31,107 bases of DNA from a virus. Taxonomy: Duplodnaviria > Heunggongvirae > Uroviricota > Caudoviricetes. Below the pieces are notes generated by a model. The model had not been told where the DNA came from. It saw nothing but the letters and a program-made list of their open reading frames with translations, and did not search any database. The stretch is taken from the IMG/VR virus record IMGVR_UViG_2602041644_000001; one strand, 5' to 3'. The position numbers and the translations under genes are program-made. Shown here in pieces: positions 9,354-31,107 of the stretch. Positions within the stretch are counted from its first letter, which is position 1. The number at the start of each line of letters is the position of its first letter.

Positions 9354-9361
9354 TTCATCAA

Positions 9362-9386: not shown

Positions 9387-9410
9387 GCTTATTACAAAGA
9401 GTTTTCTTCA

Positions 9411-9761: not shown

Positions 9762-9782
9762 TAATGATTCTCAACTTCCTGA

Positions 9783-9848
9783 GGGGAGGGGCGGGTCAAA
9801 TCCCTGCGGCCTGACGTCTTCCGGACTGCCCGCCCCATCGTTTTTTTA
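9783..9848. other. GC-rich stem-loop element plus T-run (terminator and/or part of the cos/packaging region)
   Basis: GGGGCGGG (9788-9795) pairs with CCCGCCCC (9829-9836), followed by ATCGTTTTTTTA. Lies between HNH and the small terminase subunit, where HK97-like phages carry cos. Confidence 0.4.
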
Positions 9849-9886
9849 TACCCGCGAAAAATGAAATTTAACCAGGAGTGCCGCAT

Positions 9887-12111: not shown

Positions 12112-12122
12112 CTGAGGTAATT

Positions 12123-12305
12123 ATGATCATGCTGATTCTCGCGCCTCTGGTGGGCGTGCTGGGGGCGCTTTTGCTGGCGTATGGTGCCTGGCTGATTTAT
12201 CCCCCGGCGGGGTTTGTTGTTGCCGGGGCGTTGTGCCTGTTCTGGTCGTGGCTGGTGGCGCGATATCTTGACCGTACACAGTCGTCTGTCGGCGGAGGTA
12301 AATAG
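12123..12305 (+). CDS. Small hydrophobic protein (two predicted TM helices)
   Basis: 60-aa ORF with RBS between terminase and portal. Could be spurious. Confidence 0.35.
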
Positions 12306-14174: not shown

Positions 14175-14188
14175 TCAGGAGAAATACG

Positions 14189-15394: not shown

Positions 15395-15401
15395 TCACTC
15401 A

Positions 15402-15430
15402 GGGGCGCGGAACCGCGCCCCTGTTCTGAT
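15402..15430 (+). terminator. Terminator-like hairpin after the capsid gene
   Basis: GGGGCGCGG-AACC-GCGCCCC stem with a weak T-tract. Confidence 0.4.
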
Positions 15431-15442
15431 GGGTGAAGAATC

Positions 15443-15643
15443 ATGATCCTGAAACAAGATCTGAAATGGTCACCGGACGGTATGCGTGTTGAGGTCATTC
15501 GGGCCGGTGAGTATGACGACGGGGCGCTTCCTGCCCGGGTGCAGGAGGTTGCACTTCAGGCCGGGTTAGCAGAGCGCGGAACCAGTGCAAAAAGCAGTAA
15601 AGCGACAAAAGAGAAAAAAGCCACGACCAGTAAAGAGGGCTGA
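15443..15643 (+). CDS. Hypothetical small protein (66 aa, lysine-rich C-terminus)
   Basis: ORF with plausible RBS between capsid and connector genes. Confidence 0.4.
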   Translation: MILKQDLKWSPDGMRVEVIRAGEYDDGALPARVQEVALQAGLAERGTSAKSSKATKEKKATTSKEG

Positions 15644-15645
15644 GT

Positions 15646-15969
15646 ATGCTTCTGACAATGGAAGAGATTAAAGCCCAACTCCGGCTGGATGAGGATTTCG
15701 ATGCTGATGACCGCCATCTGCAACTGCTGGCCTATGCGGCACAAAAGCGGACGGAAACGTATCTGAACCGGAAGCTCTATGCACCGGATGAAACCATTCC
15801 GGACAGCGATCCGGACGGGCTGCACCTGCCGGATGATATTCGTCTGGGGATGCTGATGCTTATCAGCCATTTTTACGAAAACCGCTCGTCGGTTACGGAA
15901 GTGGAGAAACTCGACATGCCGCAGAGTTTTGGCTGGCTTGTCGGCCCGTACAGGTACTTTCCGCAATGA
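15646..15969 (+). CDS. Head-tail connector protein (gp6-like)
   Basis: Size, position and N-terminal MEEIKAQLRLDED motif typical of gp6-like connectors. Confidence 0.75.
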   Translation: MLLTMEEIKAQLRLDEDFDADDRHLQLLAYAAQKRTETYLNRKLYAPDETIPDSDPDGLHLPDDIRLGMLMLISHFYENRSSVTEVEKLDMPQSFGWLVGPYRYFPQ

Positions 15970-16376
15970 AAATTCGTCAGGCGCAGACCAGCGCAACCTA
16001 CATTCTGCCGGACCCCGGTGAACTGAATAAACGCGTCCTGATCCGCCTGCGGGTGGATATGCCCGCGGATAACTTTGGCGTGGAGCCTCAATACCCGGTT
16101 ACGTTCCGGACATGGGCGAAGGTTATCCAGACCAGTGCCACCACCTGGCAGGAAACCGCGCAGACCGGGGACGCCATCACCCATTACATCACCATTCGTT
16201 ACCGCCGGGGGATCACCGCTGATTATGAGGTGGTCTGCGGTGACAGTGTGTACCGGGTGAAACGTCAGCGCGATCTGAACGGGGCGCGGCGCTTTCTGCT
16301 GCTGGAGTGTACGGAGCTGGGCGAATGTAGGCAGAGTCACGGAGGCAACAATGACGACTTCCTTTTTGCACGTTGA
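15966..16376 (+). CDS. Head closure / head-tail adaptor protein
   Basis: Position after the connector, ~136 aa, overlapping starts. Confidence 0.6.
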   Translation: MKIRQAQTSATYILPDPGELNKRVLIRLRVDMPADNFGVEPQYPVTFRTWAKVIQTSATTWQETAQTGDAITHYITIRYRRGITADYEVVCGDSVYRVKRQRDLNGARRFLLLECTELGECRQSHGGNNDDFLFAR

Positions 16377-16857
16377 TTTTCAGCAGCCCGCGGAGATGCG
16401 CTTTAACCGCGCCCGTGTCCGGCGGGCGTTTGTCACGATTGGTCAGCGTCATATGCGTGATGCCCGTCGGCTGGTGATGCGCCGTGCGCGGTCGGCACCG
16501 GGTGAAAACCCCGGTTATCAGACCGGACGCCTGGCTCGTTCGATTGGTTACATGGTACCCAGAGCCAGTAAACATCGCCCTGGTTTTATGGCACGTATAG
16601 CCCCTAACCAGCGTAATGGAGAGGGAAACCGCCGTATCACCGGTGATTTTTATCCGGCTTTTTTGTTCTATGGCGTGAGGCGAGGGGCAAAGCGTCGTCG
16701 CAGCCATCATCGTGGTGCATCCGGTGGCAGCGGCTGGCGACTGGCTCCACGTAATAACTTCATGGTGGAAACGCTTGAAAAGAACCGCAGCTGGACACGC
16801 TATTTTCTGGCGCGGGAATTGCGTAAATCACTGAAGCCGGAGCGACGACACAGATGA
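16351..16857 (+). CDS. HK97 gp10-like protein
   Basis: Basic ~168-aa protein in the expected position. Start ATG 16351 with RBS GGAGG. Confidence 0.65.
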   Translation: MTTSFLHVDFQQPAEMRFNRARVRRAFVTIGQRHMRDARRLVMRRARSAPGENPGYQTGRLARSIGYMVPRASKHRPGFMARIAPNQRNGEGNRRITGDFYPAFLFYGVRRGAKRRRSHHRGASGGSGWRLAPRNNFMVETLEKNRSWTRYFLARELRKSLKPERRHR

Positions 16858-17414
16858 AACTGACGCCTGTTATTGCTGCACTGCGTGCCCGCTGTCCGTA
16901 TTTTGAATACCGGGTTGCAGGCGCGGCCCAGTTCAAAAATCTGCCGGAGGTCGGAAAGCTGAAACTCCCTGCGGCATATGTTGTACCGGGTGATGATTCT
17001 CCGGGAGAAAACAAAAGCCAGACCGACTACTGGCAGGAGCTGAAAGAGGGTTTCTCCGTGGTTGTCATACTGAGTAACGGGCGTGATGAGCGCGGTCAGT
17101 TTGCCTCGTATGATGTGGTGGACGATGTCCGGCAGATGCTCTTTAAGGCTCTGCTGGGCTGGAACCCGGAGGCGTGCGGTAACCCGATTACCTATGACGG
17201 CGGCACGCTGCTGGATCTGAATCGTCATGAGCTGATTTATCAGTTCGATTTTTCGGTCATCAGCGAGCTGACTGAAGACGATACCCGCCAGCAGGATGAT
17301 CTGAACAGTCTGGATGAACTGCAAACGCTGGCGATTGATGTTGATTATCTCGATCCCGGTAACGGGCCTGACGGCGATATCGAACATCACACCGAAATAA
17401 CCCTTCCTTCCTGA
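16854..17414 (+). CDS. Tail completion / terminator-like protein
   Basis: Position between the head-completion genes and the sheath gene. Confidence 0.5.
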   Translation: MKLTPVIAALRARCPYFEYRVAGAAQFKNLPEVGKLKLPAAYVVPGDDSPGENKSQTDYWQELKEGFSVVVILSNGRDERGQFASYDVVDDVRQMLFKALLGWNPEACGNPITYDGGTLLDLNRHELIYQFDFSVISELTEDDTRQQDDLNSLDELQTLAIDVDYLDPGNGPDGDIEHHTEITLPS

Positions 17415-17422
17415 GAATCTTC

Positions 17423-17590
17423 ATGTTTGTGAAACCTGTTAAAGGGCGGTCAGTGCCTGACCCTGCCCGCGGTGACCTTTTGCCCACCGAAGGGCGAAAT
17501 GTTGACGAGAACAACTACTGGCTGCGCCGTGAAGCAGCGGGTGATATCCGGCGCGTGAATGAAAAGGTGAATACCGATGACGAGCTTTAA
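17423..17590 (+). CDS. Small DUF2635-like protein (55 aa) upstream of the tail sheath
   Basis: ATG 17423 to TAA 17588-17590 (MFVKPVKGRSVPDPARGDLLPTEGRNVDENNYWLRR...). Absent from the ORF track because it is under 60 aa. Confidence 0.6.
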   Translation: MFVKPVKGRSVPDPARGDLLPTEGRNVDENNYWLRREAAGDIRRVNEKVNTDDEL

Positions 17591-19070
17591 CACCATTCCG
17601 TCAAATACGCTGGTTCCGATTTTTTATGCGGAAATGGATAACTCGGCGGCGAATACTGCACAGGACAGCGGAGCATCGCTGCTGATTGGTCATGCCAATA
17701 ACGGTGCAGAGATTGTTGCCAACAGTCTGGTGCTGATGCCATCGGCAGACTATGCACGCCAGATTTGTGGTGCGGGAAGTCAGCTGGCGCGTATGGTCGA
17801 GGCTTATCGCCAGACCGACCCGTTTGGTGAGCTGTATGTGATTGCCGTTCCGGAAGCCACAGGCGCGGCGGCAACGGTTACGCTGACGGTGACCGGGGAA
17901 GCAACCGAAAGCGGCACGGTGAATGTTTATGTGGGACGTACCCGCGTGCAGGCACCGGTGACCAACGGCGATAACGTTGCGACGATTGCCAGCAGTATCC
18001 AGGATGCCATCAATGCCGTTCCGGCCCTGCCGTTTACGGCCTCATCTTCGGCTGGCGTGGTCACACTGACCGCGCGTCATAAGGGGCTTTGCGGGAATGA
18101 AATTCCTGTCAGCCTCAATTACTACGGCTTTGGTGGGGGCGAAGTGCTGCCAGCGGGCGTACAGATTGCCGTGGCGACGGGTACCGCCGGAACGGGTGCT
18201 CCGGTTCTCACCGGCGCGGTGGCTGCAATGGCGGATGAGCCGTTTGATTATATCGGCCTGCCGTTCAACGACACGGCCTCCGTTAACACGCTGGTGACCG
18301 AGATGAACGATACCAGCGGTCGCTGGAGCTATGCGCGTCAGCTGTATGGTCATGTGTATACGGCAAAGATCGGCACGCTGTCAGAACTGGTGACCGCAGG
18401 TGACCAGTTTAACCAGCAGCACATTACCCTGGCGGGGTACGAAAAAGACACCCAGACGCCTGCCGATGAGCTGGCGGCAAGCCGTACCGCCCGCGCAGCG
18501 GTGTTTATCCGCAACGATCCGGCACGTCCCACGCAGACCGGTGAGCTGGTGGGTATGCTGCCTGCGCCGAAGGGGAAACGGTTCACGATGACCGAACAAC
18601 AGACCCTGCTGTCTCATGGCGTGGCAACGGCGTATGTCGAAAGCGGGGTACTGCGCATTCAGCGTGATGTCACCACGTACAGGAAAAACGCTTACGGGGT
18701 TGCGGATAACAGCTATCTCGACAGCGAGACGCTGTATACCAGTGCGTATGTACTGCGCAAACTGAAATCCGTCATTACCAGTAAGTACGGGCGTCACAAG
18801 CTTGCCAGCGACGGTACCCGCTTTGGTCCCGGTCAGGCGATTGTCACCCCGGCGGTGATCAAAGGGGAACTGCTGGCAACCTACCGTCAGCTTGAGCGTG
18901 CGGGGATCGTGGAAAACTACGAACTGTTTAAGCAGTACCTGGTTGTGGAGCGTGATGCCAGCGATCCGAACCGCCTGAACACGCTGTTCCCGCCTGACTA
19001 TGTTAACCAGTTGCGTGTCTTTGCCGTGGTTAACCAGTTCCGTCTTCAGTATTCAGAGGAGTCTGCATAA
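17577..19070 (+). CDS. Tail sheath protein (Mu gpL-like)
   Basis: 497 aa. N-terminus MTSFNTIPSNTLVPIFYAEMDNS is characteristic of Mu-like sheath proteins. Confidence 0.9.
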   Translation: MTSFNTIPSNTLVPIFYAEMDNSAANTAQDSGASLLIGHANNGAEIVANSLVLMPSADYARQICGAGSQLARMVEAYRQTDPFGELYVIAVPEATGAAATVTLTVTGEATESGTVNVYVGRTRVQAPVTNGDNVATIASSIQDAINAVPALPFTASSSAGVVTLTARHKGLCGNEIPVSLNYYGFGGGEVLPAGVQIAVATGTAGTGAPVLTGAVAAMADEPFDYIGLPFNDTASVNTLVTEMNDTSGRWSYARQLYGHVYTAKIGTLSELVTAGDQFNQQHITLAGYEKDTQTPADELAASRTARAAVFIRNDPARPTQTGELVGMLPAPKGKRFTMTEQQTLLSHGVATAYVESGVLRIQRDVTTYRKNAYGVADNSYLDSETLYTSAYVLRKLKSVITSKYGRHKLASDGTRFGPGQAIVTPAVIKGELLATYRQLERAGIVENYELFKQYLVVERDASDPNRLNTLFPPDYVNQLRVFAVVNQFRLQYSEESA

Positions 19071-19426
19071 TGGCCCGTATCGGGGGAACCTGTTATTTCA
19101 AAATTGACGGTCAGCAGCTATCGCTGACCGGCGGCATTGAGGTGCCCATGAACAGGACGGTCAATGATGACATCATCGGCCTGGACGGTTCAGTGGACCG
19201 CAAGGAAACTCACCGTGCGCCTTATGTCAAAGGGACCTTCAAGGTGCCGAAGAATTTTCCGGTGAGCAAAATCACCTCGTCTGATGAGATGACCATCACT
19301 GCCGAGCTGGCGAACGGTCAGGTCTATGTATTGTCGTCCGCCTGGCTGCACGGCGAAGCGAACCATAATGCCGAAGAAGGCACGGTTGATCTTGAGTTCC
19401 ACGGTGAAGAAGGGGATTACCAGTAA
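19070..19426 (+). CDS. Tail tube protein (Mu gpM-like)
   Basis: 118 aa directly after the sheath gene. Confidence 0.85.
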   Translation: MARIGGTCYFKIDGQQLSLTGGIEVPMNRTVNDDIIGLDGSVDRKETHRAPYVKGTFKVPKNFPVSKITSSDEMTITAELANGQVYVLSSAWLHGEANHNAEEGTVDLEFHGEEGDYQ

Positions 19427-19695
19427 TGAAAGAGCTTGAGTTAAAGAAACCGATTATCGCTCATGGCGAGACACTCTCCGTACTGGAGTTTGATGAACCC
19501 ACCGGGAAGGATGTCCGCGAGCTGGGGTATCCCTACCAGATGAATCAGGATGAGTCCGTCAGACTTCTGGCGCATGTGGTGTCGAAATACATTGTGCGGC
19601 TGGCGAAAGTGCCGCAAAGCTCTGTCGACCAGATGTCTCCGGCAGACCTGAATGCAGCGGCGTGGCTTGTGGCTGGTTTTTTCCTCCAGGCCTGA
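19426..19695 (+). CDS. Tail assembly chaperone, short form
   Basis: 89 aa between the tube and tape-measure genes. Contains the slippery heptamer near its 3' end. Confidence 0.75.
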   Translation: MKELELKKPIIAHGETLSVLEFDEPTGKDVRELGYPYQMNQDESVRLLAHVVSKYIVRLAKVPQSSVDQMSPADLNAAAWLVAGFFLQA

Positions 19696-19844
19696 CGGCT
19701 GAATACCTCACTGATCGCTTCTTTGACTGCGCCAGCTACTGGCGCATTAATCCCTTCGAATTGCTGAATATGCCGATCAGTGAAATTCCCTTGCTGGTCA
19801 GTCAGGCAAACAGGATAGAGCAGGAGAAACGCACACATGGCTGA
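19426..19844 (+). CDS. Tail assembly chaperone, -1 frameshift fusion product
   Basis: Slippery heptamer T_TTT_TTC at 19677-19683 in the zero frame. The -1 frame is open to TGA at 19842-19844, ending at the tape-measure start. Confidence 0.6.
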
Positions 19845-21672
19845 ATTTGAGCTTAAGGCGTTGATCACCGGTGTCGACAGGCTTTCTCCCGCGCTGTCGA
19901 AAATGCAAAAGAAAATCCGGGGATTTAAACGCCAGGCGGAAGAAGCGTCACAGGGTGGGCTGGCGCTTGGTGGCGGACTGGCAGCGGGTCTGACGCTTTC
20001 CCTGAAATCTTATGCCGATCAGGAAAACGCCGCCACCGGGCTGAAAGTCGCCATGATGGATGCGAACGGCGAGGTTGGAAAGAGCTTTCAGGACATCAAT
20101 AAACTGGCTATTGGCCTGGGTAACCAGCTACCCGGTACAACGGCTGATTTCCAGAACATGATGCAGATGCTGGTGCGTCAGGGGATCCCGGCAGAAAACA
20201 TTCTTGGTGGTGTGGGTAAAGCGACAGCTTATCTTGCGGTACAACTGAAAAAAACACCGGAAGCGGCTGCTGAGTTTGCTGCAAAGATGCAGGATGCTAC
20301 CGGAACGGCCTCAGAAGACATGATGGGGCTGTTCGACACAATTCAGAAGGCGTTTTATCTGGGCGTTGACGACACCAACATGTTGTCATTCTTCACTAAA
20401 ACCAGCTCTGTTCTGAAGATGGTGAACAAGGACGGTCTTCAGGCTGCACAGAGTCTTGCCCCCATCAGTGTCATGATGGATCAGATGGGGATGAACGGGG
20501 AGTCGGCAGGTAATGCCCTGCGAAAAGTTATCCAGTCCGGATTAAGCGTTAAGAAAATCAGGGACGTCAATAAAATCATGGCCCGCCAGAAACTCGGGGT
20601 ACAGCTCGATTTTACTGATGGCAAAGGGAGTTTTGGCGGTCTTGATAACATGTTCAGGCAACTGGCAAAGCTGCGAAAACTGACCGACGTTAAGCGAACC
20701 GGTGTACTTAAGGCAATATTTGGTGATGATGCCGAAACCCTTCAGGTGGTCAATGCGCTGATCGATAAAGGAAAGGATGGCTACGATCAGATCCAGCAGA
20801 AGATGAATAAACAGGCCAGCCTGAATAAACGTGTTCAGGCCCAGCTTGGTACGCTGTCCAACCTGTGGGAGGCAATGACGGGGACCGCAACTAACGGCCT
20901 TGCGGCTATTGGCGGCGCATTTTCTGGTGACGCTAAGAACATCACGCAGTGGCTGGGGGAGTTGGGGGAGAAATTCACGAAGTTTGCGGATGAAAATCCC
21001 CGGGTTATTCGCGGCGTCGTCGGGCTTGCTGCCGGTCTTGCGATTCTGAAACTGGGATTGATGGGCGTGGGCGGTGCCATCAGTATTGTCAGCAGGATCA
21101 TGTCGATGACGCCGATTGGCATGATTGCGACGGCGATTGCTCTGGCTGCGGGATTAATTATCACTAACTGGGATGTTGTCGGACCTTATTTCAAGAAGCT
21201 CTGGGAAACTATTGGTCCTTATTTTGAGGCAGGCTGGGAACTTCTGAAGAAGGTTTTTGCCTGGTCGCCGCTGGGGATGGTGATCAATAACTGGGGACCG
21301 GTTGTTAAGTGGTTTCAGGATATGTGGGACAAGCTGAAGCCGATTATTGAATGGTTTACCGACAGTTCCGGTGACACGGTCGATGCCATTAACTCGGCGC
21401 AGTGGGGCGCGGGTGCTTATGATGCTTATGGGACGGGAATACCGCCACGGGGATACACTCCTTATCCGGCGGTGGATCCGGCTCAGGCAAACAACGCCTC
21501 CGGTGCCACAGGCCCGAATCCCTTCATGATCAACAAAGCTTCTGCGCCAAAAGTTGATGGTGAGATCAAGGTCTCTTTTGTGAATTCGCCTCCGGGTATG
21601 CGGGTTATGGAAACGCGATCCAGCGGTTTTGATGTCAGCCATGATGTTGGCTATACGCGCTTTGGCAGGTAA
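19837..21672 (+). CDS. Tail tape measure protein
   Basis: 611 aa, helical N-terminal half and Gly/hydrophobic C-terminal segments, in the canonical position. Confidence 0.9.
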   Translation: MAEFELKALITGVDRLSPALSKMQKKIRGFKRQAEEASQGGLALGGGLAAGLTLSLKSYADQENAATGLKVAMMDANGEVGKSFQDINKLAIGLGNQLPGTTADFQNMMQMLVRQGIPAENILGGVGKATAYLAVQLKKTPEAAAEFAAKMQDATGTASEDMMGLFDTIQKAFYLGVDDTNMLSFFTKTSSVLKMVNKDGLQAAQSLAPISVMMDQMGMNGESAGNALRKVIQSGLSVKKIRDVNKIMARQKLGVQLDFTDGKGSFGGLDNMFRQLAKLRKLTDVKRTGVLKAIFGDDAETLQVVNALIDKGKDGYDQIQQKMNKQASLNKRVQAQLGTLSNLWEAMTGTATNGLAAIGGAFSGDAKNITQWLGELGEKFTKFADENPRVIRGVVGLAAGLAILKLGLMGVGGAISIVSRIMSMTPIGMIATAIALAAGLIITNWDVVGPYFKKLWETIGPYFEAGWELLKKVFAWSPLGMVINNWGPVVKWFQDMWDKLKPIIEWFTDSSGDTVDAINSAQWGAGAYDAYGTGIPPRGYTPYPAVDPAQANNASGATGPNPFMINKASAPKVDGEIKVSFVNSPPGMRVMETRSSGFDVSHDVGYTRFGR

Positions 21673-21732
21673 TGAAAAATTAATCTGTTAATGAGTCCCA
21701 CTCCGGTGGGATTTTTTATGTACGGAGTTTAT

Positions 21733-23061
21733 ATGACGTGGAAAGACAGGCTTCAGGACGCGTCATTTCGCGGTGTGCCGTTTAAGGTTGAAGAAGAAAG
21801 TGCGGGAACCGGTCGCCGTGTGGAAACACACGAATATCCGAACCGCGACAAGCCCTATACCGAAGACCTGGGGAAAATCACTTTTCGCCCGTCCATCACG
21901 GCTTATGTGGTGGGAGATGACTGCTTTGACCAGCGTGATCGCCTGATTGACGCGCTGAATAAACCCGGTCCCGGCACGCTTGTCCATCCGACTTACGGTG
22001 AGCTGAAAGTCTGTGTTGACGGAGAGGTTCGGGTCAGCACATCGAAGAGTGAAGGGCGTATTGTCCGCTTTGACCTGAAGTTTGTCGAAGCGGGAGAACT
22101 CTCTTACCCCACATCAGGTGCGGCGACGGCGCAGACGCTGATGTCATCCTGTTCTGCACTGGATGACTGCATCAGTGACAGTTTCAGTGGTTTCAGTATC
22201 GATGGCGTGGCAGATTTTGTGCAGAACGACGTCGTCGGTAATGCCAGCACAATGCTTGGGTATGTTTCTGATGCGATGAAAGTGGTGGATTCTGCCGTAT
22301 CGGATGCCGCCAGGCTGTTGCAGGGGGATATCTCGGTACTTCTGCCGCCGCCATCGTCAGGCAAAAATTTCGTTGAGCAGGTGCAGAAAATGTGGCGTAC
22401 CGGGAAACGCCTTTATGGTAACGCCAGCGACCTGGTCACCATGATCAAAACGCTTTCCGGTGTCAGCCTCGGCAGCGATCTGCAACCGCGCGGCGTCTGG
22501 AAAACGGACAGTAAAACCACCGCCACGGCGACGCAGCAGCGTAACGTGGTTGCCAGTACCCTTCGTACGACCGCAATCAGCGAAGCGGCGTATGCCGTCA
22601 CACGATTGCCTGCGCCCACAACTTCCGCGGTGATGCAGAATGCCACAGTGGGGCAGTCAACAACACCCGCGCAGAGCACCGGCTGGCCTTCTGTCACGCA
22701 TCCGGCACTGAACAATGCACCGGCGGTGAAAAACACGGTTGACCTGCCAACGTGGGAAGAACTGACCGACATTCGCGACACGCTGAATACGGCAATTGAT
22801 AAGGAGTTGTCCCGTACAACCAGTGATGCGCTGTTTCTGGCACTGCGCCGGGTGAAAGCAGATCTGAATGCGGATATCAACACGCGCCTTGAACAGTCTG
22901 CACGGATCATTCAGCGCACGCCGGATGAGGTCTTACCCGCGCTGGTGCTGGCGGCGACCTGGTTTGATAACGCGGCGCGTGACGCGGACATTATCCGGCG
23001 TAATGCCATTAAACATCCCGGCTTTGTGCCGGTGATCCCTCTGAAGGTGCCAGTGCAATGA
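21733..23061 (+). CDS. DNA circularisation protein (Mu N-like)
   Basis: N-terminus MTWKDRLQDASFRGVPF typical of Mu N-like proteins. ATG 21733 preferred over 21691. Confidence 0.8.
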   Translation: MTWKDRLQDASFRGVPFKVEEESAGTGRRVETHEYPNRDKPYTEDLGKITFRPSITAYVVGDDCFDQRDRLIDALNKPGPGTLVHPTYGELKVCVDGEVRVSTSKSEGRIVRFDLKFVEAGELSYPTSGAATAQTLMSSCSALDDCISDSFSGFSIDGVADFVQNDVVGNASTMLGYVSDAMKVVDSAVSDAARLLQGDISVLLPPPSSGKNFVEQVQKMWRTGKRLYGNASDLVTMIKTLSGVSLGSDLQPRGVWKTDSKTTATATQQRNVVASTLRTTAISEAAYAVTRLPAPTTSAVMQNATVGQSTTPAQSTGWPSVTHPALNNAPAVKNTVDLPTWEELTDIRDTLNTAIDKELSRTTSDALFLALRRVKADLNADINTRLEQSARIIQRTPDEVLPALVLAATWFDNAARDADIIRRNAIKHPGFVPVIPLKVPVQ

Positions 23062-24137
23062 ACGATAACGTCACGCTACGGGTAAATGGCCGGGAGTGGA
23101 ATGGCTGGACATCGGTGCGCATCGGTGCCGGTATTGAACGGCTGGCGCGGGATTTCAGTGTGGAGATCACCCGCCAGTGGCCGGGAGATGAGGGTATCAC
23201 CACGCTTCAGCCGCGCATTAAAAATGGTTCAAAAGTGGAAGTGCTGATTGGTGATGAGCTGGTGATCACCGGCTGGGTGGAGGCGACCCCCGTTCGTTAC
23301 GATGCCCGTTCGGTCAGCACCGGTATTGCCGGACGTAGTCTGACTGCTGACCTGATTGACTGTGCAGCCGAACCGACACAGTTTAACGGACGATCGCTGG
23401 TACAGATTGCGCAGGCGCTTGCTGCGCCTTTCGGCATTGAGGTGGTGAACAACGGTGCGCCGTCGGGTGTTATTCCTGATGTCCAGCCTGATCACGGTGA
23501 AACGGTGATTGAGGTAATCAACAAAATACTCGGTCAGCAGCAGGCACTGGCTTACGACGACCCGCACGGCAGGCTGGTGATTGGCGGTATTGGCTCAACG
23601 CGGGCACATACTGCGCTGGTACTCGGGGAAAACATCCTTTCCTGCGATACGGAGAAGAGTATCCGGGAGCGGTTTTCTGTTTACCAGGTGGCGGGGCAGC
23701 GTGCCGGAAACGACGATGATTTCGGTGAGGCCACCACCACCGCGCTGCGGGCCCGCACAGAGGACGCATTTATTGCCCGTTACCGTCCGATGTATATCAG
23801 GCAGACAGGGCAGGCTACGGGGGCAGGCTGTATTGCCCGTGCGGACTTTGAAGCCAAACAACGGGCGGCGCGGACGGATGAAACCACCTATGTGGTGCAG
23901 GGCTGGCGACAGGGTAACGGTACGCTGTGGCAGCCCAACCAGCGGGTGATTGTCTTTGATCCGGTCTGTGGTTTCGACAATACCGAACTGCTTGTTTCGG
24001 AAGTCACGTTTACTCAGGACCAGAACGGCACCCTGACGGAAATCCGTGTCGGCCCACCTGATGCTTATCTGCCTGAACCCGAAGCCCCCGGCGCGCGGAA
24101 AAAGAAAAAAGCCAGAGTACAGGAGGACCCGTTCTGA
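23058..24137 (+). CDS. Mu gpP-like tail / baseplate hub protein
   Basis: 359 aa in the Mu-like order N-P-45-46-47-48. Confidence 0.8.
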   Translation: MNDNVTLRVNGREWNGWTSVRIGAGIERLARDFSVEITRQWPGDEGITTLQPRIKNGSKVEVLIGDELVITGWVEATPVRYDARSVSTGIAGRSLTADLIDCAAEPTQFNGRSLVQIAQALAAPFGIEVVNNGAPSGVIPDVQPDHGETVIEVINKILGQQQALAYDDPHGRLVIGGIGSTRAHTALVLGENILSCDTEKSIRERFSVYQVAGQRAGNDDDFGEATTTALRARTEDAFIARYRPMYIRQTGQATGAGCIARADFEAKQRAARTDETTYVVQGWRQGNGTLWQPNQRVIVFDPVCGFDNTELLVSEVTFTQDQNGTLTEIRVGPPDAYLPEPEAPGARKKKKARVQEDPF

Positions 24138-24685
24138 TGAGGACGATTGAAGCCATGCAGCGACAACTCCTCGGCCTGATTGGGCGGGCCGTGGTGAAAA
24201 GCATCAGTGCCGCCACGAAATGTCAGACCGTGGATGTGTCTCTGATTGCCGGTGAACCCAAAGCCGGGGTTGAACATCTTGAACCCTACGGTTTTACCGC
24301 AAGGGCAAACAGCGGTGCGGAAGCGGTGGTGTTGTTTCCGGATGGCGACCGTTCTCATGCGGTGGTTGTTACGGTGTCGGACCGGCGCTACCGCCTGAAA
24401 GGGCTGCAGACGGGTGAGGTGGCTGTCTATGACGATCAGGGGCAGTCCGTGACGCTGACCCGGGAGGGGATCGTGGTGGACGGTGCAGGTAAAACGATCA
24501 CGTTTCGCAATTCACCTAAAGCACGTTTTGAAATGGACCTGGAAGTGACCGGACAGGTGAAAGACCTGTGCGACTCCAGCGGCACCACCATGTCAGCGAT
24601 GCGGCTTGCCTATAACGGGCATCGTCACAGAGAGAACGGTCAGGGCAGTAACACCGACAAACCTGATAAAGCAATGGAGGCATGA
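24137..24685 (+). CDS. Baseplate spike / assembly protein V (Mu gp45-like)
   Basis: 182 aa gpV-like protein with coupled start. Confidence 0.8.
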   Translation: MRTIEAMQRQLLGLIGRAVVKSISAATKCQTVDVSLIAGEPKAGVEHLEPYGFTARANSGAEAVVLFPDGDRSHAVVVTVSDRRYRLKGLQTGEVAVYDDQGQSVTLTREGIVVDGAGKTITFRNSPKARFEMDLEVTGQVKDLCDSSGTTMSAMRLAYNGHRHRENGQGSNTDKPDKAMEA

Positions 24686-25110
24686 TGGAACTGTGGCTGA
24701 TGGTGAACGGTAAACGCACCTGCGCCAGCACACCGCTGGATCCGCTGACCCGCGCCGTGGTGATTTCCCTGTTTACCTGGCGGCGGGCGGAGCCTGATGA
24801 CAACGCCGACGTCCCGATGGGATGGTGGGGGGATACCTGGCCTGCGGTACAGAATGACCGTTACGGCTCCCGGCTGTGGCTGCTTCAGCGCAGCAAACTG
24901 ACCAATCAGCTGGTGCAGACGGTAAGGGGGTATATCCGCGAATGCCTGCAATGGATGATTGATGACGGTGTGGTGTCCCGTATTGATCTGGATATCCGCC
25001 GCACCGGGATTAATGAACTGGGTAACAGTATCACTCTCTGGCGTCGTGACGGACCGGTAATGATTTCTTTTGATGATCTGTGGAGTGCGATAACGCATGG
25101 CGGACAGTGA
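24682..25110 (+). CDS. GP46-family baseplate protein (Mu gp46-like)
   Basis: 142 aa in conserved position. Confidence 0.75.
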   Translation: MMELWLMVNGKRTCASTPLDPLTRAVVISLFTWRRAEPDDNADVPMGWWGDTWPAVQNDRYGSRLWLLQRSKLTNQLVQTVRGYIRECLQWMIDDGVVSRIDLDIRRTGINELGNSITLWRRDGPVMISFDDLWSAITHGGQ

Positions 25111-26155
25111 ATTTCAGCGCCCGACGCTGGCAGAAAATATCAGTATGCTCCGTAACGATTTATTCGCCAGGCTGGACGTCAGCGACACGCTCCGGCGCAT
25201 GGATGAAGACGTGCGGGCAAAGGTGTATGCGGCGGCGCTGCATACGGTTTACGGGTACATCGATTATCTGGCAATGAACATGCTGCCTGACCTGTGCGAT
25301 GAGTCCTGGCTGGCGCGACATGCTGCGATGAAACGGTGTCCGCGCAAGGGGGCCACGGCTGCCAGCGGGTATATGCGCTGGGAAGGTGTCAGCGATGGCC
25401 TGAAAGTGACCGCCGGGAGCGTGATTCAGCGCGATGACCTGGTTCAGTACACGGCAACTGCCGATGCAACCAGCTCCGGTGGTGTCCTGCGCGTGCCGAT
25501 CGCCTGCTCAAGTGCAGGCGCGGTCGGTAACGCTGACGACGGTACGGCATTAATCCTGGTCACGCCGGTGAATGGTCTGCCGTCTTCCGGTGTGGCTGAC
25601 ACTCTGACAGGCGGATTTGATACTGAAGATCTGGAAACGTGGCGCGCCCGCGTCATTGAGCGGTATTACTGGACGCCGCAGGGCGGGGCTGACGGGGACT
25701 ATGTCGTCTGGGCTAAAGAAGTGCCCGGCATTACCCGCGCATGGACATACCGTCACTGGATGGGAACGGGAACTGTCGGTGTGATGATTGCCGGCAGTGA
25801 CCTGATTAATCCCATTCCGGAAGAATCAACGGAAACGGCGGCAAGACAACACATCGAGCCACTGGCCCCGGTGGCAGGCTCTGATTTGTATGTGTTCAGG
25901 CCGGTGGCGCATACGGTGGATTTTCATATCCGCGTGACGCCGGACACACCGGAAATACGGGCTGCCATCACCGCGGAGTTGCGTTCGTTCCTGCTGCGTG
26001 ATGGTTATCCGCAGGGAGAACTGAAGGTGTCACGTATCAGTGAAGCGATTTCCGGTGCGAACGGGGAATACAGCCATCAGTTGCTTGCTCCGGCGGACAA
26101 TATCTCCATTGCGAAAAATGAACTGGCGGTTCTGGGGACGATTTCATGGACGTGA
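25097..26155 (+). CDS. Baseplate J-like protein (Mu gp47-like)
   Basis: 352 aa in conserved position. Confidence 0.85.
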
Positions 26156-26730
26156 CAAACGATGATTACATCCGCCTGTTATCGGCACTGTTGCCGCCCG
26201 GTCCGGCGTGGTCAGCCAGCGATCCGGCGATTGCCGGTGCGGCGCCTTCATTAACCCGTGTTCATCAGCGTGCGGATGCCCTGATGCGGGAGCTGGATCC
26301 GCGCACCACCACCGAACTGATAAATCGCTGGGAGCGTCTGTGCGGTCTGCCGGATGAATGTATTCCCACAGGGACACAGACCCTTCGCCAGCGTCAGCAA
26401 CGGCTGGATGCGAAGGTTAACCTGGCGGGCGGCATCAACGAGGATTTTTACCTTGCCCAGCTTGCTGCCCTGGGCAGACCAGACGCCAGCATCACGCGAT
26501 ACGACAAAAGCACGTTCACCTGCTCATCGGCCTGTACTGACGCGGTGAATGCGCCGGAATGGCGGTATTACTGGCAGGTCAACATGGCAGCTGCCACCAA
26601 CACCACCTGGATGACATGTGGCGATCCCTGTGATTCCGCACTGCGTATCTGGGGCGACACCGTTGTCGAGTGTGTGCTTAACAAACTCTGCCCGTCGCAT
26701 ACCTACGTAATTTTTAAATATCCGGAGTAA
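26146..26730 (+). CDS. Tail protein, Mu gp48-like / YmfQ-like (DUF2313)
   Basis: 194 aa resembling e14 YmfQ-type proteins, directly upstream of the tail fibre gene. Confidence 0.8.
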
Positions 26731-26733
26731 TCC

Positions 26734-27489
26734 ATGCATCGTATAGACACGAAAACCGCGCAGAAGGATAAGTTCGGCGCGGGTAAGAACGGTTTTACCC
26801 GTGGTAACCCCCAGACCGGCACACCTGCCACCGATCTGGATGATGACTACTTTGACATGTTGCAGGAGGAGCTTTGCGGCGTGGTGGAGGCATCCGGTGC
26901 CAGCCTGGAGAAGGGGCGGCACGACCAGCTGCTTACCGCGCTTAGTGCGCTACTGTTAAGCCGCAAAAATCCGTTTGGCGATATCAAATCGGACGGCACG
27001 GTGAAAACGGCTCTCGAAAACCTTGGTTTGGGAGAAGGCTCTGCATTACCTGTTGGTGTGCCTGTTCCGTGGCCCTCAGCCACTCCGCCAACAGGCTGGC
27101 TAAAATGCAACGGAGCAGCTTTTTCTGCTGAAGAATACCCGGAACTGGCAAAGGCTTACCCGACAAATAAATTGCCTGATTTACGCGGTGAATTTATTCG
27201 TGGCTGGGATGACGGACGTGGAGTGGATGCCGGGCGACAATTATTATCTTCACAGGGGGATGCAATAAGAAATATTGAGGGATTCGCAGATGGCGGGATC
27301 GGCATGTCTTTTGATGCAATCAGAGGGGCTTTTTACGATGCAGGAACACGATCAGCGAGAATGCCGAATAACACAACTGATATAGGCAAAACCGATGACC
27401 TTGGATTCGACGCCTCTCGTGTCGTGCCAACAGCTAATGAAAACCGTCCACGTAACATCGCCTTTAATTATATTGTGAGGGCTGCATAA
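26734..27489 (+). CDS. Tail fibre protein: constant N-terminal part fused to the currently expressed variable C-terminal cassette
   Basis: The constant part ends at the recombination site near codon ~97 (…LENLGLGE). The downstream part lies inside the invertible segment. Confidence 0.8.
27011..27037. repeat. Left inversion crossover site (gix/pix-like)
   Basis: CTCTCGAAAACCTTGGTTTGGGAGAAG. The 15-nt TTGGTTTGGGAGAAG is the exact reverse complement of 28841-28855 and the site resembles hix/gix half-sites. Confidence 0.65.
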
Positions 27490-28082
27490 TGAAACCTGTT
27501 TTTGATGAAAATGGGCTGGCTACAGTGCCGGGTGATATGCGTTGTTATTATTATGATGCAGTAACGTCTGAATATACGGGCTGGTCTGATGAATATATTA
27601 ATACTGGCGTAAGTATGCCCGCCTGTTCCACTGGTATTGACCCGGGCGAATACATTCCGGGGCAAGTGGCAGTATTCACGGGTAAGGGATGGAGCCATGA
27701 AGAAGACCATCGCAATGAGACTGTTTACTCAACAGAAAATGGCGCAGCTGTTACAGTGGATTATATCGGTGCCATCAAAGACGGTTATGTCACGCTTTCA
27801 CCGTTAACGCCATACGATAAATGGGATGGTGAGAAATGGGTGACAGATACTGAGGCACAGCATAGTGCCGCACTAGACGCGGCAGAAGCACAGCGCCAGT
27901 CGCTGATTGATGCTGCAATGGCTTCCATCAGTCTGATTCAACTGAAATTACAGGCCGGGCGGAAGCTGACGCAGGCAGAAACAACCCGACTTAACGCCGT
28001 GCTGGATTATATTGACGCGGTGACGGTAACAGATACCAGCACTGCGCCGGATGTCATCTGGCCTGAACTGCCGGAGGCGTAG
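27489..28082 (+). CDS. Tail fibre assembly protein (Tfa) for the expressed cassette
   Basis: 197 aa with a typical Tfa C-terminus (…DTSTAPDVIWPELPEA). Start coupled to the fibre gene stop. Confidence 0.8.
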   Translation: MKPVFDENGLATVPGDMRCYYYDAVTSEYTGWSDEYINTGVSMPACSTGIDPGEYIPGQVAVFTGKGWSHEEDHRNETVYSTENGAAVTVDYIGAIKDGYVTLSPLTPYDKWDGEKWVTDTEAQHSAALDAAEAQRQSLIDAAMASISLIQLKLQAGRKLTQAETTRLNAVLDYIDAVTVTDTSTAPDVIWPELPEA

Positions 28083-28494
28083 GCCATTCAATATCTGGCG
28101 CACCGGAAGTATCGACCAGTTCCAGTGTGTCCAGATAATCCAGCCACAAATTATATTGCGCCAGTTCCTCACCTTTCAGGCGACCAATCGCCGCTTTACC
28201 AGGCCATTGCTTACTGTTTATGTATTCGTTGACCTGATTAATCAATTGCTGCTTTTCCAGTTCGGCTGCGGCAATTTGTTCCTCATGAGTTGGCGGTGGA
28301 ATATCAATCCATGCAGGCATTCCGTCGATGACACCTCTGTATTTTCCTTCTGGTGCTTCCTTCATAAATTCGGCGGCAACAGTGTCGTCAATTTCGATTC
28401 CATCATCGGGCCATTCGCCGGATTCCTGATAAGCGATTTTAAGCTCCACAGGGAAAAACGCATTTTTATCGGCACTGAAAATATATTTCTGCAT
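28054..28494 (-). CDS. Alternative tail fibre assembly protein (Tfa') for the silent cassette
   Basis: 146 aa on the minus strand with the matching C-terminus (…DTSGAPDIEWPTPPAVQAR). Convergent with and overlapping the plus-strand tfa by 29 bp. Confidence 0.8.
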   Translation of the reverse strand: MQKYIFSADKNAFFPVELKIAYQESGEWPDDGIEIDDTVAAEFMKEAPEGKYRGVIDGMPAWIDIPPPTHEEQIAAAELEKQQLINQVNEYINSKQWPGKAAIGRLKGEELAQYNLWLDYLDTLELVDTSGAPDIEWPTPPAVQAR

Positions 28495-28496
28495 TT

Positions 28497-28855
28497 CTAC
28501 CGTCCTATCGAAATATAACTGAATCTGTATTGCTGTGAGATATCACTGGTTGCCACACGCCACGCTGAATTACTGATATGTTCAAAATTTACAGACAAAA
28601 CCTGCAGGGCAGGATTCGACGGGTCTGACTGAACGGCATCAGACATAACACTGACTGAAACCATCGGCTGATTAGGGAATGGTATAGGGAAGTGTCCACT
28701 GATAAAGCGGGTCGTGTTTCCTGAAAAAGTGCCAAACTGAACAATATATCCACCTGGTAGCCTGAACCATCCCGAACCAGAAGCGAATGCTCCCATATCC
28801 GGTATCTGATTATCTCCTGTGCCCACATCCCTTTTCGCCGCTTCTCCCAAACCAA
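28497..28855 (-). CDS. Silent alternative tail-fibre C-terminal cassette (promoterless until inversion)
   Basis: Minus-strand frame reads GLGEAAKRD… from the crossover site, the same GLGE junction as the plus-strand fibre. Confidence 0.7.
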
Positions 28856-28867
28856 CATTTATGAAAA
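28841..28867. repeat. Right inversion crossover site (gix/pix-like)
   Basis: CTTCTCCCAAACCAACATTTATGAAAA. The first 15 nt are the inverted repeat of 27023-27037. Located just upstream of pin. Confidence 0.65.
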
Positions 28868-28921
28868 TGCAGAAATAACGAGCAAATGGCATCATTCCTG
28901 CTTTTGCTAGGGAGATCTACC

Positions 28922-29476
28922 ATGCTTATTGGCTATGTACGTGTGTCAACAAATGACCAGAACACAGATCTACAACGTAATGCGCTGAACTGTGCAGGAT
29001 GCGAGCTGATTTTTGAAGACAAGATAAGCGGTACAAAGTCCGAAAGGCCGGGACTGAAAAAACTGCTCAGGACATTATCGGCAGGTGACACTCTGGTTGT
29101 CTGGAAGCTGGATCGGCTGGGGCGCAGTATGCGGCATCTGGTCATTCTGGTTGAGGAGTTGCGCGAACGTGGCGTTAATTTTCGCAGCCTGACGGATGCT
29201 ATTGATACCAGCACACCGATGGGGCGTTTTTTCTTTCATGTGATGGGTGCCCTGGCTGAAATGGAACGAGAACTGATTGTTGAACGAACAAAAGCTGGAC
29301 TGGAAGCTGCTCGCGCACAGGGACGAATTGGGGGACGTCGTCCCAAACTTACACTAGAACAATGGGCGCAGGCCGGGCGATTAATTGCATCAGGCATTCC
29401 TCGCCAGAAGGTGGCGATTATCTATGATGTTGGTGTGTCAACTTTGTATAAGAGGTTTCCTGCAGGGGATAAATAA
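28922..29476 (+). CDS. pin: Serine DNA invertase (Pin/Gin/Hin family)
   Basis: MLIGYVRVSTNDQ catalytic N-terminus and C-terminal HTH. 184 aa like e14 PinE. ATG 28922 after GGGAGA. Confidence 0.95.
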   Translation: MLIGYVRVSTNDQNTDLQRNALNCAGCELIFEDKISGTKSERPGLKKLLRTLSAGDTLVVWKLDRLGRSMRHLVILVEELRERGVNFRSLTDAIDTSTPMGRFFFHVMGALAEMERELIVERTKAGLEAARAQGRIGGRRPKLTLEQWAQAGRLIASGIPRQKVAIIYDVGVSTLYKRFPAGDK

Positions 29477-29577
29477 AGTTAAAGACACTTTGTGTACAAA
29501 ATAAAACAACAGCAACTTGTTGCAATTTTATCAATAAAAGTAGTATTGTCGTAAAAAATTGATTAAAGATTAATGCT

Positions 29578-30411
29578 ATGCATGTTTTTGATAATAATGG
29601 AATTGAACTAAAAGCTGAGTGTTCGATAGGTGAAGAGGATGGCGTTTATGGTCTAATCCTTGAGTCGTGGGGGCCGGGTGACAGAAACAAAGATTACAAT
29701 ATCGCTCTTGATTATATCATTGAACGGTTGGTTGATTCTGGTGTATCCCAAATCGTAGTATATCTGGCGTCATCATCAGTCAGAAAACATATGCATTCTT
29801 TGGATGAAAGAAAAATCCATCCTGGTGAATATTTTACTTTGATTGGTAATAGCCCCCGCGATATACGCTTGAAGATGTGTGGTTATCAGGCTTATTTTAG
29901 TCGTACGGGGAGAAAGGAAATTCCTTCCGGCAATAGAACGAAACGAATATTGATAAATGTTCCAGGTATTTATAGTGACAGTTTTTGGGCGTCTATAATA
30001 CGTGGAGATCTATCAGAGCTTTCACAGCCTACAGATGATGAATCGCTTCTGAATATGAGGGTTAGTAAATTAATTAAGAAAACGTTGAGTCAACCCGAGG
30101 GCTCCAGAAAACCAGTTGAGGTAGAAAGACTACAAAAAGTTTATCTCCGAGACCCGATGGTAAAAGCTTGGATTTTACAGCAAAGTAAAGGTATATGTGA
30201 AAACTGTGGTAAAAATGCTCCGTTTTATTTAAATGATGGAAGCCCATACTTGGAAGTGCATCATGTAATTCCCCTGTCTTCAGGTGGTGCTGATACAACA
30301 GATAACTGTGTTGCCCTTTGTCCGAATTGCCATAGAGAATTGCACTATAGTAAAAATGCAAAAGAACTAATCGAGATGCTTTACGTTAATATAAACCGAT
30401 TACAGAAATAA
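29578..30411 (+). CDS. mcrA: McrA-type modified-cytosine restriction endonuclease (HNH)
   Basis: 277 aa. C-terminal HNH motif (HHVIPLSSGGADTTDNCVALCPNCHRELH) with CxxC pairs. Sequence and position after pin match e14 McrA as recalled. AT-rich gene. Confidence 0.85.
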   Translation: MHVFDNNGIELKAECSIGEEDGVYGLILESWGPGDRNKDYNIALDYIIERLVDSGVSQIVVYLASSSVRKHMHSLDERKIHPGEYFTLIGNSPRDIRLKMCGYQAYFSRTGRKEIPSGNRTKRILINVPGIYSDSFWASIIRGDLSELSQPTDDESLLNMRVSKLIKKTLSQPEGSRKPVEVERLQKVYLRDPMVKAWILQQSKGICENCGKNAPFYLNDGSPYLEVHHVIPLSSGGADTTDNCVALCPNCHRELHYSKNAKELIEMLYVNINRLQK

Positions 30412-30644: not shown

Positions 30645-30809
30645 ATGCTGCGCCATATGGGCTGGACTGAAGCCGCAGACCTGATTGTTAAAGGTATGGA
30701 AGGCGCAATCAACGCCAAGACTGTAACCTATGACTTCGAGCGTCTGATGGATGGCGCTAAACTGCTGAAATGTTCAGAGTTTGGTGATGCGATCATCAAG
30801 AACATGTAA
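30645..30809 (+). pseudogene. icd: Displaced 3' fragment of isocitrate dehydrogenase gene (icdC-like), marking attR
   Basis: Encodes [54 protein letters not shown], the Icd C-terminus, with no upstream icd sequence. Confidence 0.9.
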
Positions 30810-30865: not shown

Positions 30866-31107
30866 ACAGAAAACCCCCAGCTAGGCTGGGGGTTCCGGAA
30901 AGCTTTCAGCTTTAAGCCAGTTATTAAAACCCCTTTTGATTTGTTAAAACACCTTGCGGTCTGGCAACTGCAAGTGTCAAACAAGAAATCAAAAGGGGGT
31001 CCCAATGGGGAACGAAAAGAGCTTAGCGCACACCCGATGGAACTGTAAATATCACATAGTTTTTGCGCCAAAATACCGAAGACAGGTGTTCTACAGAGAG
31101 AAGCGTA
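30866..31107 (+). mobile_element. IS200-family insertion sequence, left end (partial, continues beyond window)
   Basis: Perfect hairpin CCCCCAGC-TA-GCTGGGGG (30874-30892), a second structured leader, and the tnpA start. Exact left boundary not determined. Confidence 0.7.
31005..31107 (+). CDS. tnpA: IS200 transposase TnpA (Y1 HUH), N-terminal 34 codons only
   Basis: MGNEKSLAHTRWNCKYHIVFAPKYRRQVFYREKR matches the conserved IS200 TnpA N-terminus. Open to the window end. Confidence 0.85.
   Translation, partial: MGNEKSLAHTRWNCKYHIVFAPKYRRQVFYREKR

Follow-up and report, generated by a model that had tools for sequence, protein, structure and literature searches.

An invertible tail-fibre segment beside pin in an e14/SfV-like prophage and its two orientations in Escherichia coli genomes

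Inversion by Pin in prophage e14 has been described since the 1980s and is a textbook relative of the Gin system of phage Mu and the Cin system of phage P1. Earlier accounts of the e14 P-segment/PinE system are reportedly those of Plasterk and van de Putte in 1985 and of Mehta and colleagues in 2004. In Mu (Gin) and P1/P7 (Cin), a constant part Sc is followed by Sv/U or by Sv'/U', and this architecture, as well as the 26-bp site consensus, is common to the Pin system. The invertase gene of these phages adjoins the segment and carries the enhancer in its own 5' end. Hin of Salmonella belongs to the same recombinase subfamily and its hix sites are of the same 26-bp type, but Hin flips a promoter and sits inside its segment, whereas pin lies outside and switches a coding-sequence fusion. 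In E. coli K-12, clonal cultures hold both orientations of the homologous segment together (PMC4272514). Moreover, overexpression of pinE lifts the inversion level in K-12 to about 49% (PMC12529663), and PinQ of prophage Qin also inverts the e14 segment (PMC12529663).

The DNA analysed here, called the window, is a stretch of 31,107 nucleotides from a virus of the Caudoviricetes (IMG/VR record IMGVR_UViG_2602041644_000001). Its right-hand part very probably holds the P-inversion system of an e14-family prophage, that is, a tail-fibre switch of the Din type (Gin/Cin/Pin/Hin). In RefSeq, the element of the identical locus is inserted at icd and, exactly as in K-12 e14, mcrA and an icd' remnant come after it; the gene order pinE-mcrA-icd' was found at its right end, as in an e14-type element. 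In the comparison with K-12, McrA reached 98.6%, YmfQ 96.9% and PinE 96%. The element, about 39 kb long, is an e14/SfV-like prophage of full length, with a complete morphogenesis module and Mu gp45-48-like baseplate genes. On the other hand, K-12 e14 has no equivalents of window positions 335-10974 and 12713-25367; it is a double-deletion derivative of such an element, and the full-length prophage hence reveals the ancestor type of this defective one. As prophage e14 has this very P-inversion system, the switch is not new but was already known, and the cassette alleles alone differ from K-12. As a discovery it is of little weight, being a textbook system whose pinE is already annotated in RefSeq for the identical sequence. 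The only record labelled as a phage that carries an identical Pin (ON470584.1) was rejected as a sign of inducibility because it is an in-silico prophage prediction; its gene order is scrambled and host genes are included.

Table 1. Coordinates of the parts of the tail-fibre switch (window positions)
Feature	Position	Strand	Remarks
Sc, constant 5' portion of the fibre gene (codons 1-96)	26734-27022	+	ends at the crossover dinucleotide
Crossover site 1 (fibre-gene side)	27011-27036		CTCTCGAAAACC TT GGTTTGGGAGAA; core dinucleotide 27023-27024
Invertible segment	27023-28855		1833 bp, core dinucleotide to core dinucleotide
Variable cassette 1, Collar-type tip	27025-27489	+	fused to Sc at present, expressed
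tfa for cassette 1 (TfaE-like chaperone)	27489-28082	+	Pfam Caudo_TAP, E 5.9e-27
tfa for cassette 2 (TfaP-like chaperone)	28054-28494	-	Pfam Caudo_TAP, E 2e-34
Variable cassette 2, gp53-like tip	28497-28853	-	detached from Sc at present
Crossover site 2 (pin side)	28842-28867		TTCTCCCAAACC AA CATTTATGAAAA; core dinucleotide 28854-28855
pin, serine DNA invertase of 184 aa	28922-29476	+	Resolvase and HTH_7 domains
Probable recombinational enhancer (Fis-binding, putative)	28940-29007		inside the 5' end of pin; homology only

The fibre gene in the window is an open reading frame of 251 aa (26734-27489, plus strand), whose first 105 aa share 95% identity with StfP of K-12 (Table 1). Cassette 1 was assigned to Pfam Collar (PF07484, E 1.6e-15) and to the tail collar fibre PHROG, and it shares 61% identity with K-12 StfE. 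Cassette 2 matched Pfam Gp53-like_C (PF21882, E 2.3e-9), and BLASTP gave no match between its tip and the variable part of K-12 StfP. The first-pass annotation had proposed one convergent tfa for each variable cassette, and this agrees with the two Caudo_TAP frames, which are 64% identical to K-12 TfaE (cassette 1) and 55% identical to K-12 TfaP (cassette 2) and overlap by 29 nt at their 3' ends. K-12 e14 shows the same overlap, and the layout of two convergent cassette-plus-tfa pairs (stfP-tfaP / tfaE-stfE / pinE) is common to both elements. The first-pass annotation had also proposed that the reading frame is kept through a GLGE junction in both orientations. The minus-strand cassette 2 reads ...FINVGLGEAAKRD at the junction, and flipping 27023-28855 in silico gave an uninterrupted in-frame fibre of 215 aa, which is annotated as one coding sequence in strain 22AR0747; the open reading frames and the flip thus bear the proposal out. 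The constant N-terminal part is therefore fused in frame to either tip, and each tip has its own chaperone. Both fibres are much shorter than those of Mu, P1 and P7, and the cassettes differ as well.

The flipped junction, ...GLGEAAKRD(V/I)GTG.NQIPDM, matches the fibre of Shigella phage SfV. SfV, SfI, SfII and SfIV are serotype-converting phages of Shigella and functional e14-like myoviruses; over the baseplate genes and Sc, their DNA matches that of the window at 97.5% identity, and the match ends at position 27037. The SfV fibre gene keeps the identical 26-bp site and the junction ...GLGEAAKRD... of the flipped state, but SfV has one cassette, one tfa and no invertase, and its fibre is fixed.

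Both arrangements occur in complete E. coli genomes. An unflipped query of 3001 nt was found with 100.0% identity in S1-JOR-02-A, WR3-3 and WR14-2, and 22AR0747 and MSB1_6C gave one uninterrupted match of 100.0% identity over 3001 nt to the query flipped at 27023-28855. In 22AR0747, the segment is exactly reverse-complemented (0 mismatches) between flanks of 3438 and 2267 nt, also with 0 mismatches, and the remaining 25 kb of the prophage are 100.0% identical across all five genomes. When complete genomes with at least 80% of the arrangement were counted, 13 were unflipped and 16 flipped. That prophages identical in all else show both orientations points to natural inversion at exactly these sites; as judged from the comparison of five assemblies, not of one culture, the segment does invert in nature. 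These five prophages, whose sole difference is the 1833-bp flip, constitute a clean worked example that documents natural switching. The reference K-12 sequence holds its segment in the orientation opposite to the window, and its segment and perfect repeat measure 1797 bp and 16 bp (PMC12529663), versus 1833 bp and 15 bp here.

Concerning the crossover sites, two sequences of 26 bp could be lined up with pix, cix and gix; they are imperfect palindromes in opposed (inverted) orientation. The Din-family consensus TTNTCNNAAACC NN GGTTTNNGANAA served to define membership, and against the gix/cix/pix family consensus site 1 matched at 17/18 positions and site 2 at 16/18. Site 1 lies in the fibre gene and splits it, as had been proposed for a gix/pix-like site, and the inverted partner is just upstream of pin, with 67 nt between its centre and the ATG, a spacing that is equal in K-12 pinE and in Mu gin. 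The limits first given (27011-27037 and 28841-28867) were right in location and 1 nt wider than the 26-bp sites. Furthermore, site 1 is identical to the site in stfP of K-12 e14, and site 2 differs from its K-12 e14 counterpart by 1 nt. The dyad match between half-sites is 10/12 for site 1 and 7/12 for site 2, whose outer half-site is degenerate and weak. Once the sites are aligned, the core dinucleotide is AA in both (TT in site 1 and AA in site 2 on the plus strand), as in cix, whereas gix has GA; this common 2-bp core makes religation possible after a rotation of 180 degrees. A multi-inversion system of the Min or shufflon type was rejected, because a scan of 26000-30000 against TTNTCNNAAACCNNGGTTTNNGANAA gave sites 1 and 2 as the only 26-mers with at least 15/18 matches. 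Weak half-site matches appear at window positions 820, 2252, 6219 and 18143, each without a second half-site.

An intact pin adjacent to the segment had also been expected, and it was found with no loss of the active site. The protein scored against Pfam Resolvase (E 8e-52) and HTH_7 (E 4e-14), is 96% identical to K-12 PinE and is annotated as pinE in RefSeq. It aligns end to end with the Gin structures 3UJ3 and 4M6F (181 residues, E 1e-93), the catalytic Ser9 is present and the stretch YVRVSTNDQ is intact, as in a small serine recombinase, whose N-terminal catalytic domain carries the nucleophile Ser9/10 and whose C-terminal part is an HTH. Both orientations exist and Ser9 is intact, which favours a working switch over the single orientation with inactive Pin that the first-pass annotation had named as its counter-case. 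Position 114 of Pin is Met, as in the wild-type Mu gin sequence, whereas both crystallised Gin chains have Val; M114V is presumably the Fis-independent change of those constructs. By analogy with the related invertases, Pin would be expected to depend on the host protein Fis and on supercoiling. The position of pin differs from that of cin in P7, which is found at the opposite side of the segment with respect to Sc.

A cis-acting enhancer is probably located in the 5' end of pin, as homology with other invertase genes suggests. Its counterpart in P7 cin is nt 19-86, annotated there as "putative enhancer", and the stretch shows 76% identity with cin and gin. Of nine invertase genes, 8 preserve the G-N13-C core at pin nt 22-36 and all 9 preserve the one at 71-85. 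The TAATG segment that lies between these presumed Fis cores is common to pin and the Hin enhancer region. The cores of pin start 49 nt apart and the Fis core spacing in hin is 48 bp, so the exact core assignment is uncertain. Synonymous-site conservation was rejected as independent proof of the enhancer since the signal is weak (third-codon-position conservation of 0.52 over the presumed enhancer versus a gene average of 0.46). The first-pass annotation had called the switch fully specified; its structural parts stand, but the cis enhancer in pin had been omitted.

By analogy with Hin and Gin, Pin dimers would bind both 26-bp sites and an invertasome would form together with the enhancer in the 5' part of pin, to which Fis would be bound. 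Both sites would then be cut at the central AA/TT, and rotation by 180 degrees and religation would invert the 1833-bp segment. In the orientation of the window, the 96 codons of Sc would be expressed with the Collar-type tip and the TfaE-like chaperone would be co-transcribed; after inversion, Sc would be in frame with the gp53-like tip, accompanied by the TfaP-like chaperone. As Sc can be joined to either tip, a lysogen population should release virions with two alternative receptor-binding tips. The switch may thereby change the host range, as homology with Mu and P1 would suggest.

It could also be considered that the switch serves, in addition or mainly, as a host anti-phage device, in which a leader-fused gp53-like protein blocks the adsorption of other phages. 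An open reading frame of 132 aa (28497-28895, minus strand) spans site 2 and is annotated as a coding sequence by RefSeq; it starts outside the segment, with an ATG at 28895/28892 (MMPFARYFCIFINVGLGE...). This combination of a leader and a gp53-like tip is the architecture of K-12 StfE2, which, if produced, is reported to stop the adsorption of T2 (Kirigo et al. 2025, PMC12529663), and the segment in the window is in the state that corresponds to StfE2 production. However, the BLASTP result for the gp53-like tip, which gave no match to the variable part of StfP, implies that the blocking specificity of K-12 is not transferable. The AGGA before the leader ATG is poorly spaced, and a simple sigma-70 scan of 28860-28930 found no convincing promoter for either pin or the leader frame. 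Moreover, the complete morphogenesis module, unlike the situation in K-12 e14, makes the classical phage function enough to explain the switch. A defensive role is hence unlikely, and there is a similarly small chance that one inversion could set both the virion tip and a leader-fused adsorption-blocking protein in a possibly inducible prophage. If true, the window would represent the "defence-on" state, but its tip differs from that of K-12 and so, perhaps, would the range of phages targeted. In any case, the cassette alleles unlike those of K-12 bear on any extension of the recent claim that phage adsorption is blocked by products of e14 inversion (PMC12529663).

Regarding the enzyme of the tail-fibre switch, local Pin probably catalyses the inversion. 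A trans-acting invertase, or rare homologous recombination across the 15-bp repeat, might act instead: Din invertases cross-complement, PinQ acts on the K-12 segment as mentioned above, and several invertase loci of this kind are present in many E. coli genomes, the median genome having 2 matching places. Nevertheless, Pin is full length, all the aligned residues of its catalytic domain are common to Gin, and the geometry of sites and enhancer is conserved. Furthermore, 15 bp is far below the length that RecA needs for efficient recombination, and the orientations are about equally common among relatives. Inversion by a route other than local Pin is thus improbable.

The sites had been said to share a perfect 15-bp inverted repeat, and computation found it exact: TTGGTTTGGGAGAAG lies at 27023-27037 (plus strand) and 28841-28855 (minus strand), these are its only exact copies in the whole window, and the pair extends further as a repeat of 20 nt at 90%. 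In first-order Markov simulations of 26500-29600, 9 of 3000 runs produced a perfect non-overlapping inverted pair of 15-mers. The 31-kb window as a whole has 3 such pairs where 0.6 were expected, so the repeat by itself is no more than moderately unusual; it is convincing because of where it lies and how well it fits the site consensus. That it reflects chance or an assembly artefact, with no inversion, would fit the two further chance-like pairs in the window, but such a pair is rare in the local simulation, both sites fit the 26-bp consensus and one has the very sequence of the K-12 site defined by experiment (PMC12529663), and this reading, of negligible probability, is refuted by the exact flipped product in the independent assemblies of 22AR0747 and MSB1_6C. 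A perfect 13-bp inverted repeat (28484-28496 / 28865-28877) was considered as another recombination substrate and rejected; it has no site consensus and was taken as chance. K-12, whose outer copy is AAATGAAGAAATA, does not keep this repeat.

By every testable feature, the tail-fibre region belongs to the Din family, specifically to the e14 Pin system, and its Fis dependence and host-range effect are predicted. It comprises inverted consensus sites with a matching core, adjoining an intact invertase gene, with an in-frame fusion both ways and one chaperone per tip. The first-pass annotation had read 27011-29476 from the sequence alone as a complete Pin-type inversion switch, and this finding is correct, yet the switch was already known. 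The gene layout proposed for 26734-29476 agrees with the ORF reading and with the Pfam and PHROGs domains, which are consistent with each other for these genes, and each cassette has its own tfa; both middle ORFs are Caudo_TAP proteins.

Features of the switch region and of the right end of the prophage (window positions)
Feature	Position	Strand	Remarks
Fibre ORF, 251 aa	26734-27489	+	Tip: Collar domain (Pfam)
Site 1, 26 bp	27011-27036		CTCTCGAAAACC TT GGTTTGGGAGAA
Tail-fibre assembly ORF, 197 aa	27489-28082	+	Caudo_TAP (Pfam)
Tail-fibre assembly ORF, 146 aa	28054-28494	-	Caudo_TAP (Pfam)
ORF reading FINVGLGEAAKRD	28497-28895	-	Tip: Gp53-like_C domain (Pfam)
Site 2, 26 bp	28842-28867		TTCTCCCAAACC AA CATTTATGAAAA
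pin, 184 aa	28922-29476	+	True start: ATG 28922; Resolvase and HTH_7 (Pfam)
McrA	29578-30411		Downstream of pin; 98.6% identical to the K-12 protein
Duplicated icd 3' end	30645-30809		Marks the right attachment junction of the prophage
IS200C transposase start	about 31006-31107

The two tfa genes converge and share their last 29 nt, one on each strand (28054-28082), and tfaP/tfaE of K-12 have the same 29-nt overlap. The detached gp53-like cassette reads through site 2 into a leader of 18 codons that has ATGs at 28895 and 28892; the leader is 27 nt away from the start of pin, which is on the opposite strand. This ORF is a stand-alone CDS in RefSeq and the counterpart of the K-12 stfE/StfE2 ORF, recently claimed to be expressed and anti-phage.

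Concerning the crossover sites, exact computation over the window returned exactly two copies of the 15-mer TTGGTTTGGGAGAAG, at 27023-27037 (+) and 28841-28855 (-), which bears out the perfect 15-bp inverted repeat claimed before. Sites 1 and 2 are the only 26-mers in 26000-30000 with 15 or more matches to the 18 specified positions in the consensus TTNTCNNAAACCNNGGTTTNNGANAA, which also fits Mu gix, P7 cix and the sites beside four other phage invertases. Their core dinucleotide is the same (AA once aligned), and this equality meets the need of a serine invertase for religation after rotation. When the local 3.1 kb was simulated 3000 times, 9 runs gave a perfect, non-overlapping inverted pair of 15-mers; over the whole window three perfect pairs were observed versus 0.6 expected, so the statistical case lies in position and consensus, not in the repeat alone. 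The two further pairs (2012-2026 / 2670-2684, inside methyltransferase and RusA genes and with no extension beyond the repeat, and 9677-9691 / 24201-24215) do not resemble an invertase site and are probably due to chance. The same probably applies to a 13-nt perfect inverted repeat with one arm where the minus-strand tfa starts and the other immediately outside site 2 (28484-28496 / 28865-28877, TATTTCTGCATTT / AAATGCAGAAATA), which is not conserved in K-12.

The product of inversion was built by reverse-complementing 27023-28855, mimicking exchange at the core dinucleotides. This construct carries an uninterrupted fibre ORF in which ...ENLGLGE is joined to AAKRDVGTG..., and the frame is kept through the GLGE junction in both orientations, as proposed (251-aa ORF versus 215-aa flipped ORF). 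Both arrangements were searched against 5,426 complete E. coli genomes. The unflipped one was found at 100.0% over 3001 nt in S1-JOR-02-A, WR3-3 and WR14-2, and the flipped one at 100.0%, as a single aligned piece, in 22AR0747 and MSB1_6C. For 22AR0747, the flanks align over 3438 and 2267 nt without a mismatch, the 1833 nt between them are exactly reverse-complemented, and RefSeq annotates the 215-aa fusion as a single CDS. As the other 25 kb of the prophage are 100.0% identical across these five genomes, the inversion is essentially the sole difference between them here. Counting more distant relatives with at least 80% of an arrangement, 13 genomes are unflipped and 16 flipped. Hence, both orientations occur in nature, which decides in favour of the switch the refuting condition named in the first-pass annotation (only one orientation ever observed in deep long-read data, together with a Pin active-site mutation); the comparison is between assemblies and not within one culture. 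In the K-12 homologue, both orientations have been found together in clonal cultures (PMC4272514), with about 30% of wild-type cells inverted and about 49% under pinE overexpression (PMC12529663).

Pin aligns with the crystallised Gin (3UJ3, 4M6F) over 181 residues (E about 1e-93) and keeps Ser9 within YVRVSTNDQ. Position 114 is Met in Pin, as in the wild-type Mu gin sequence, versus Val in both crystallised Gin chains; M114V is the Fis-independent change in those constructs. The distance from the centre of site 2 to the pin start codon (67 nt) equals that in K-12 pinE and Mu gin. The stretch 28940-29007, 76% identical to cin and gin, is homologous to cin nt 19-86, annotated as 'putative enhancer' in the P7 record, and is probably a recombinational enhancer as well. 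It holds two 15-mers of the form G-N13-C, at pin nt 22-36 (kept in 8 of 9 invertase genes) and 71-85 (9 of 9), which fit Fis cores, described as AT-rich 15-mers that have G and C as their end bases (PMC4784862), and a TAATG segment, which in hin has been noted between the Fis sites of its enhancer (PMC3798978). Third-codon-position conservation over the stretch is only slightly raised, so its putative enhancer status is an assignment by homology.

Following the Hin/Gin literature and the K-12 experiments, Pin dimers and the Fis-bound enhancer would form an invertasome that cleaves at the site cores, rotates and religates. The late operon would express only the cassette and tfa located 3' of the constant part, and the two tips may recognise different receptors. 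Less probably, the flipping is done by invertases acting in trans; in K-12, the segment is inverted by PinQ, from prophage Qin (PMC12529663). A defence role is improbable: in K-12, the leader-fused gp53-like StfE2 has been claimed to block T2 adsorption (PMC12529663), and an analogous 132-aa ORF spans site 2 here, with the segment in the corresponding orientation, but BLASTP shows no relationship between its gp53-like tip and that of K-12, and neither a promoter nor a well-spaced ribosome-binding site was found for this ORF. A chance repeat or an artefact is excluded by the flipped genomes (22AR0747 and MSB1_6C), the simulations (9/3000) and the consensus matches.

The window sequence recurs unchanged in a prophage inserted at icd. 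This prophage has an integrase, an excisionase and a lambdoid early region, followed by a P27-type terminase, an HK97-type head and a contractile tail and baseplate that resemble those of Mu, with homologues of gp45-48. Its right end runs from the fibre switch through pinE, mcrA and the duplicated icd 3' end to IS200C, present as two tandem copies in the source genomes. At least 80% of the 25-kb prophage part is found in 570 of the 5,426 complete E. coli genomes (about a tenth). The defective K-12 prophage e14 has the same ends and matches the window at 96-98% in three blocks (1-334, 10975-12712 and 25368-27038), with Pin 96% (PinE) and YmfQ 96.9% identical at the protein level. Since it lacks equivalents of 335-10974 and 12713-25367, e14 is a double-deletion derivative of such a full-length prophage; the deletions took out the genes for lysis and late regulation as well as the majority of those for head and tail. 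Besides sitting in an undeleted prophage, the switch differs from that of K-12 only in its cassette alleles. Site 1 is identical and site 2 differs in one base, the perfect repeat is 15 bp versus 16 bp in K-12, and the invertible segment 1833 versus 1797 bp. The central ~400 bp (27801-28209) are about 90% conserved, whereas the outer cassette parts diverge, the Collar tip being 61% identical to StfE.

The functional Shigella phages SfI, SfII, SfIV and SfV match the window with about 97.5% DNA identity in the baseplate region and the constant part of the fibre gene (window 23000-27037), and the similarity goes no further than 27037, where the site 1 repeat ends. SfV has a single cassette and no invertase, but retains the identical 26-bp site in its fibre gene (949-974 of the SfV locus, L013) as an orphan crossover site, and its fibre carries the GLGEAAKRD junction of the flipped state. 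A P2-like prophage (NZ_CP132983.1; 2501-4338 of its locus, L001) has a segment 96.8% identical to window 27018-28855, in the opposite orientation relative to an invertase that is 86% identical at the DNA level, and its constant fibre part is unrelated. This homology begins exactly at the crossover site, which therefore acts as the border of a module that unrelated phages exchange. An identical Pin is encoded in ON470584.1 ('Escherichia phage vB_EcoM-689R6'), an in-silico prophage prediction that includes the host genes icd, rluE and mnmA. At the invertible segment, the genes of this record are out of order, with pin first and the fibre constant part after mcrA, and the assembly probably broke at this region.
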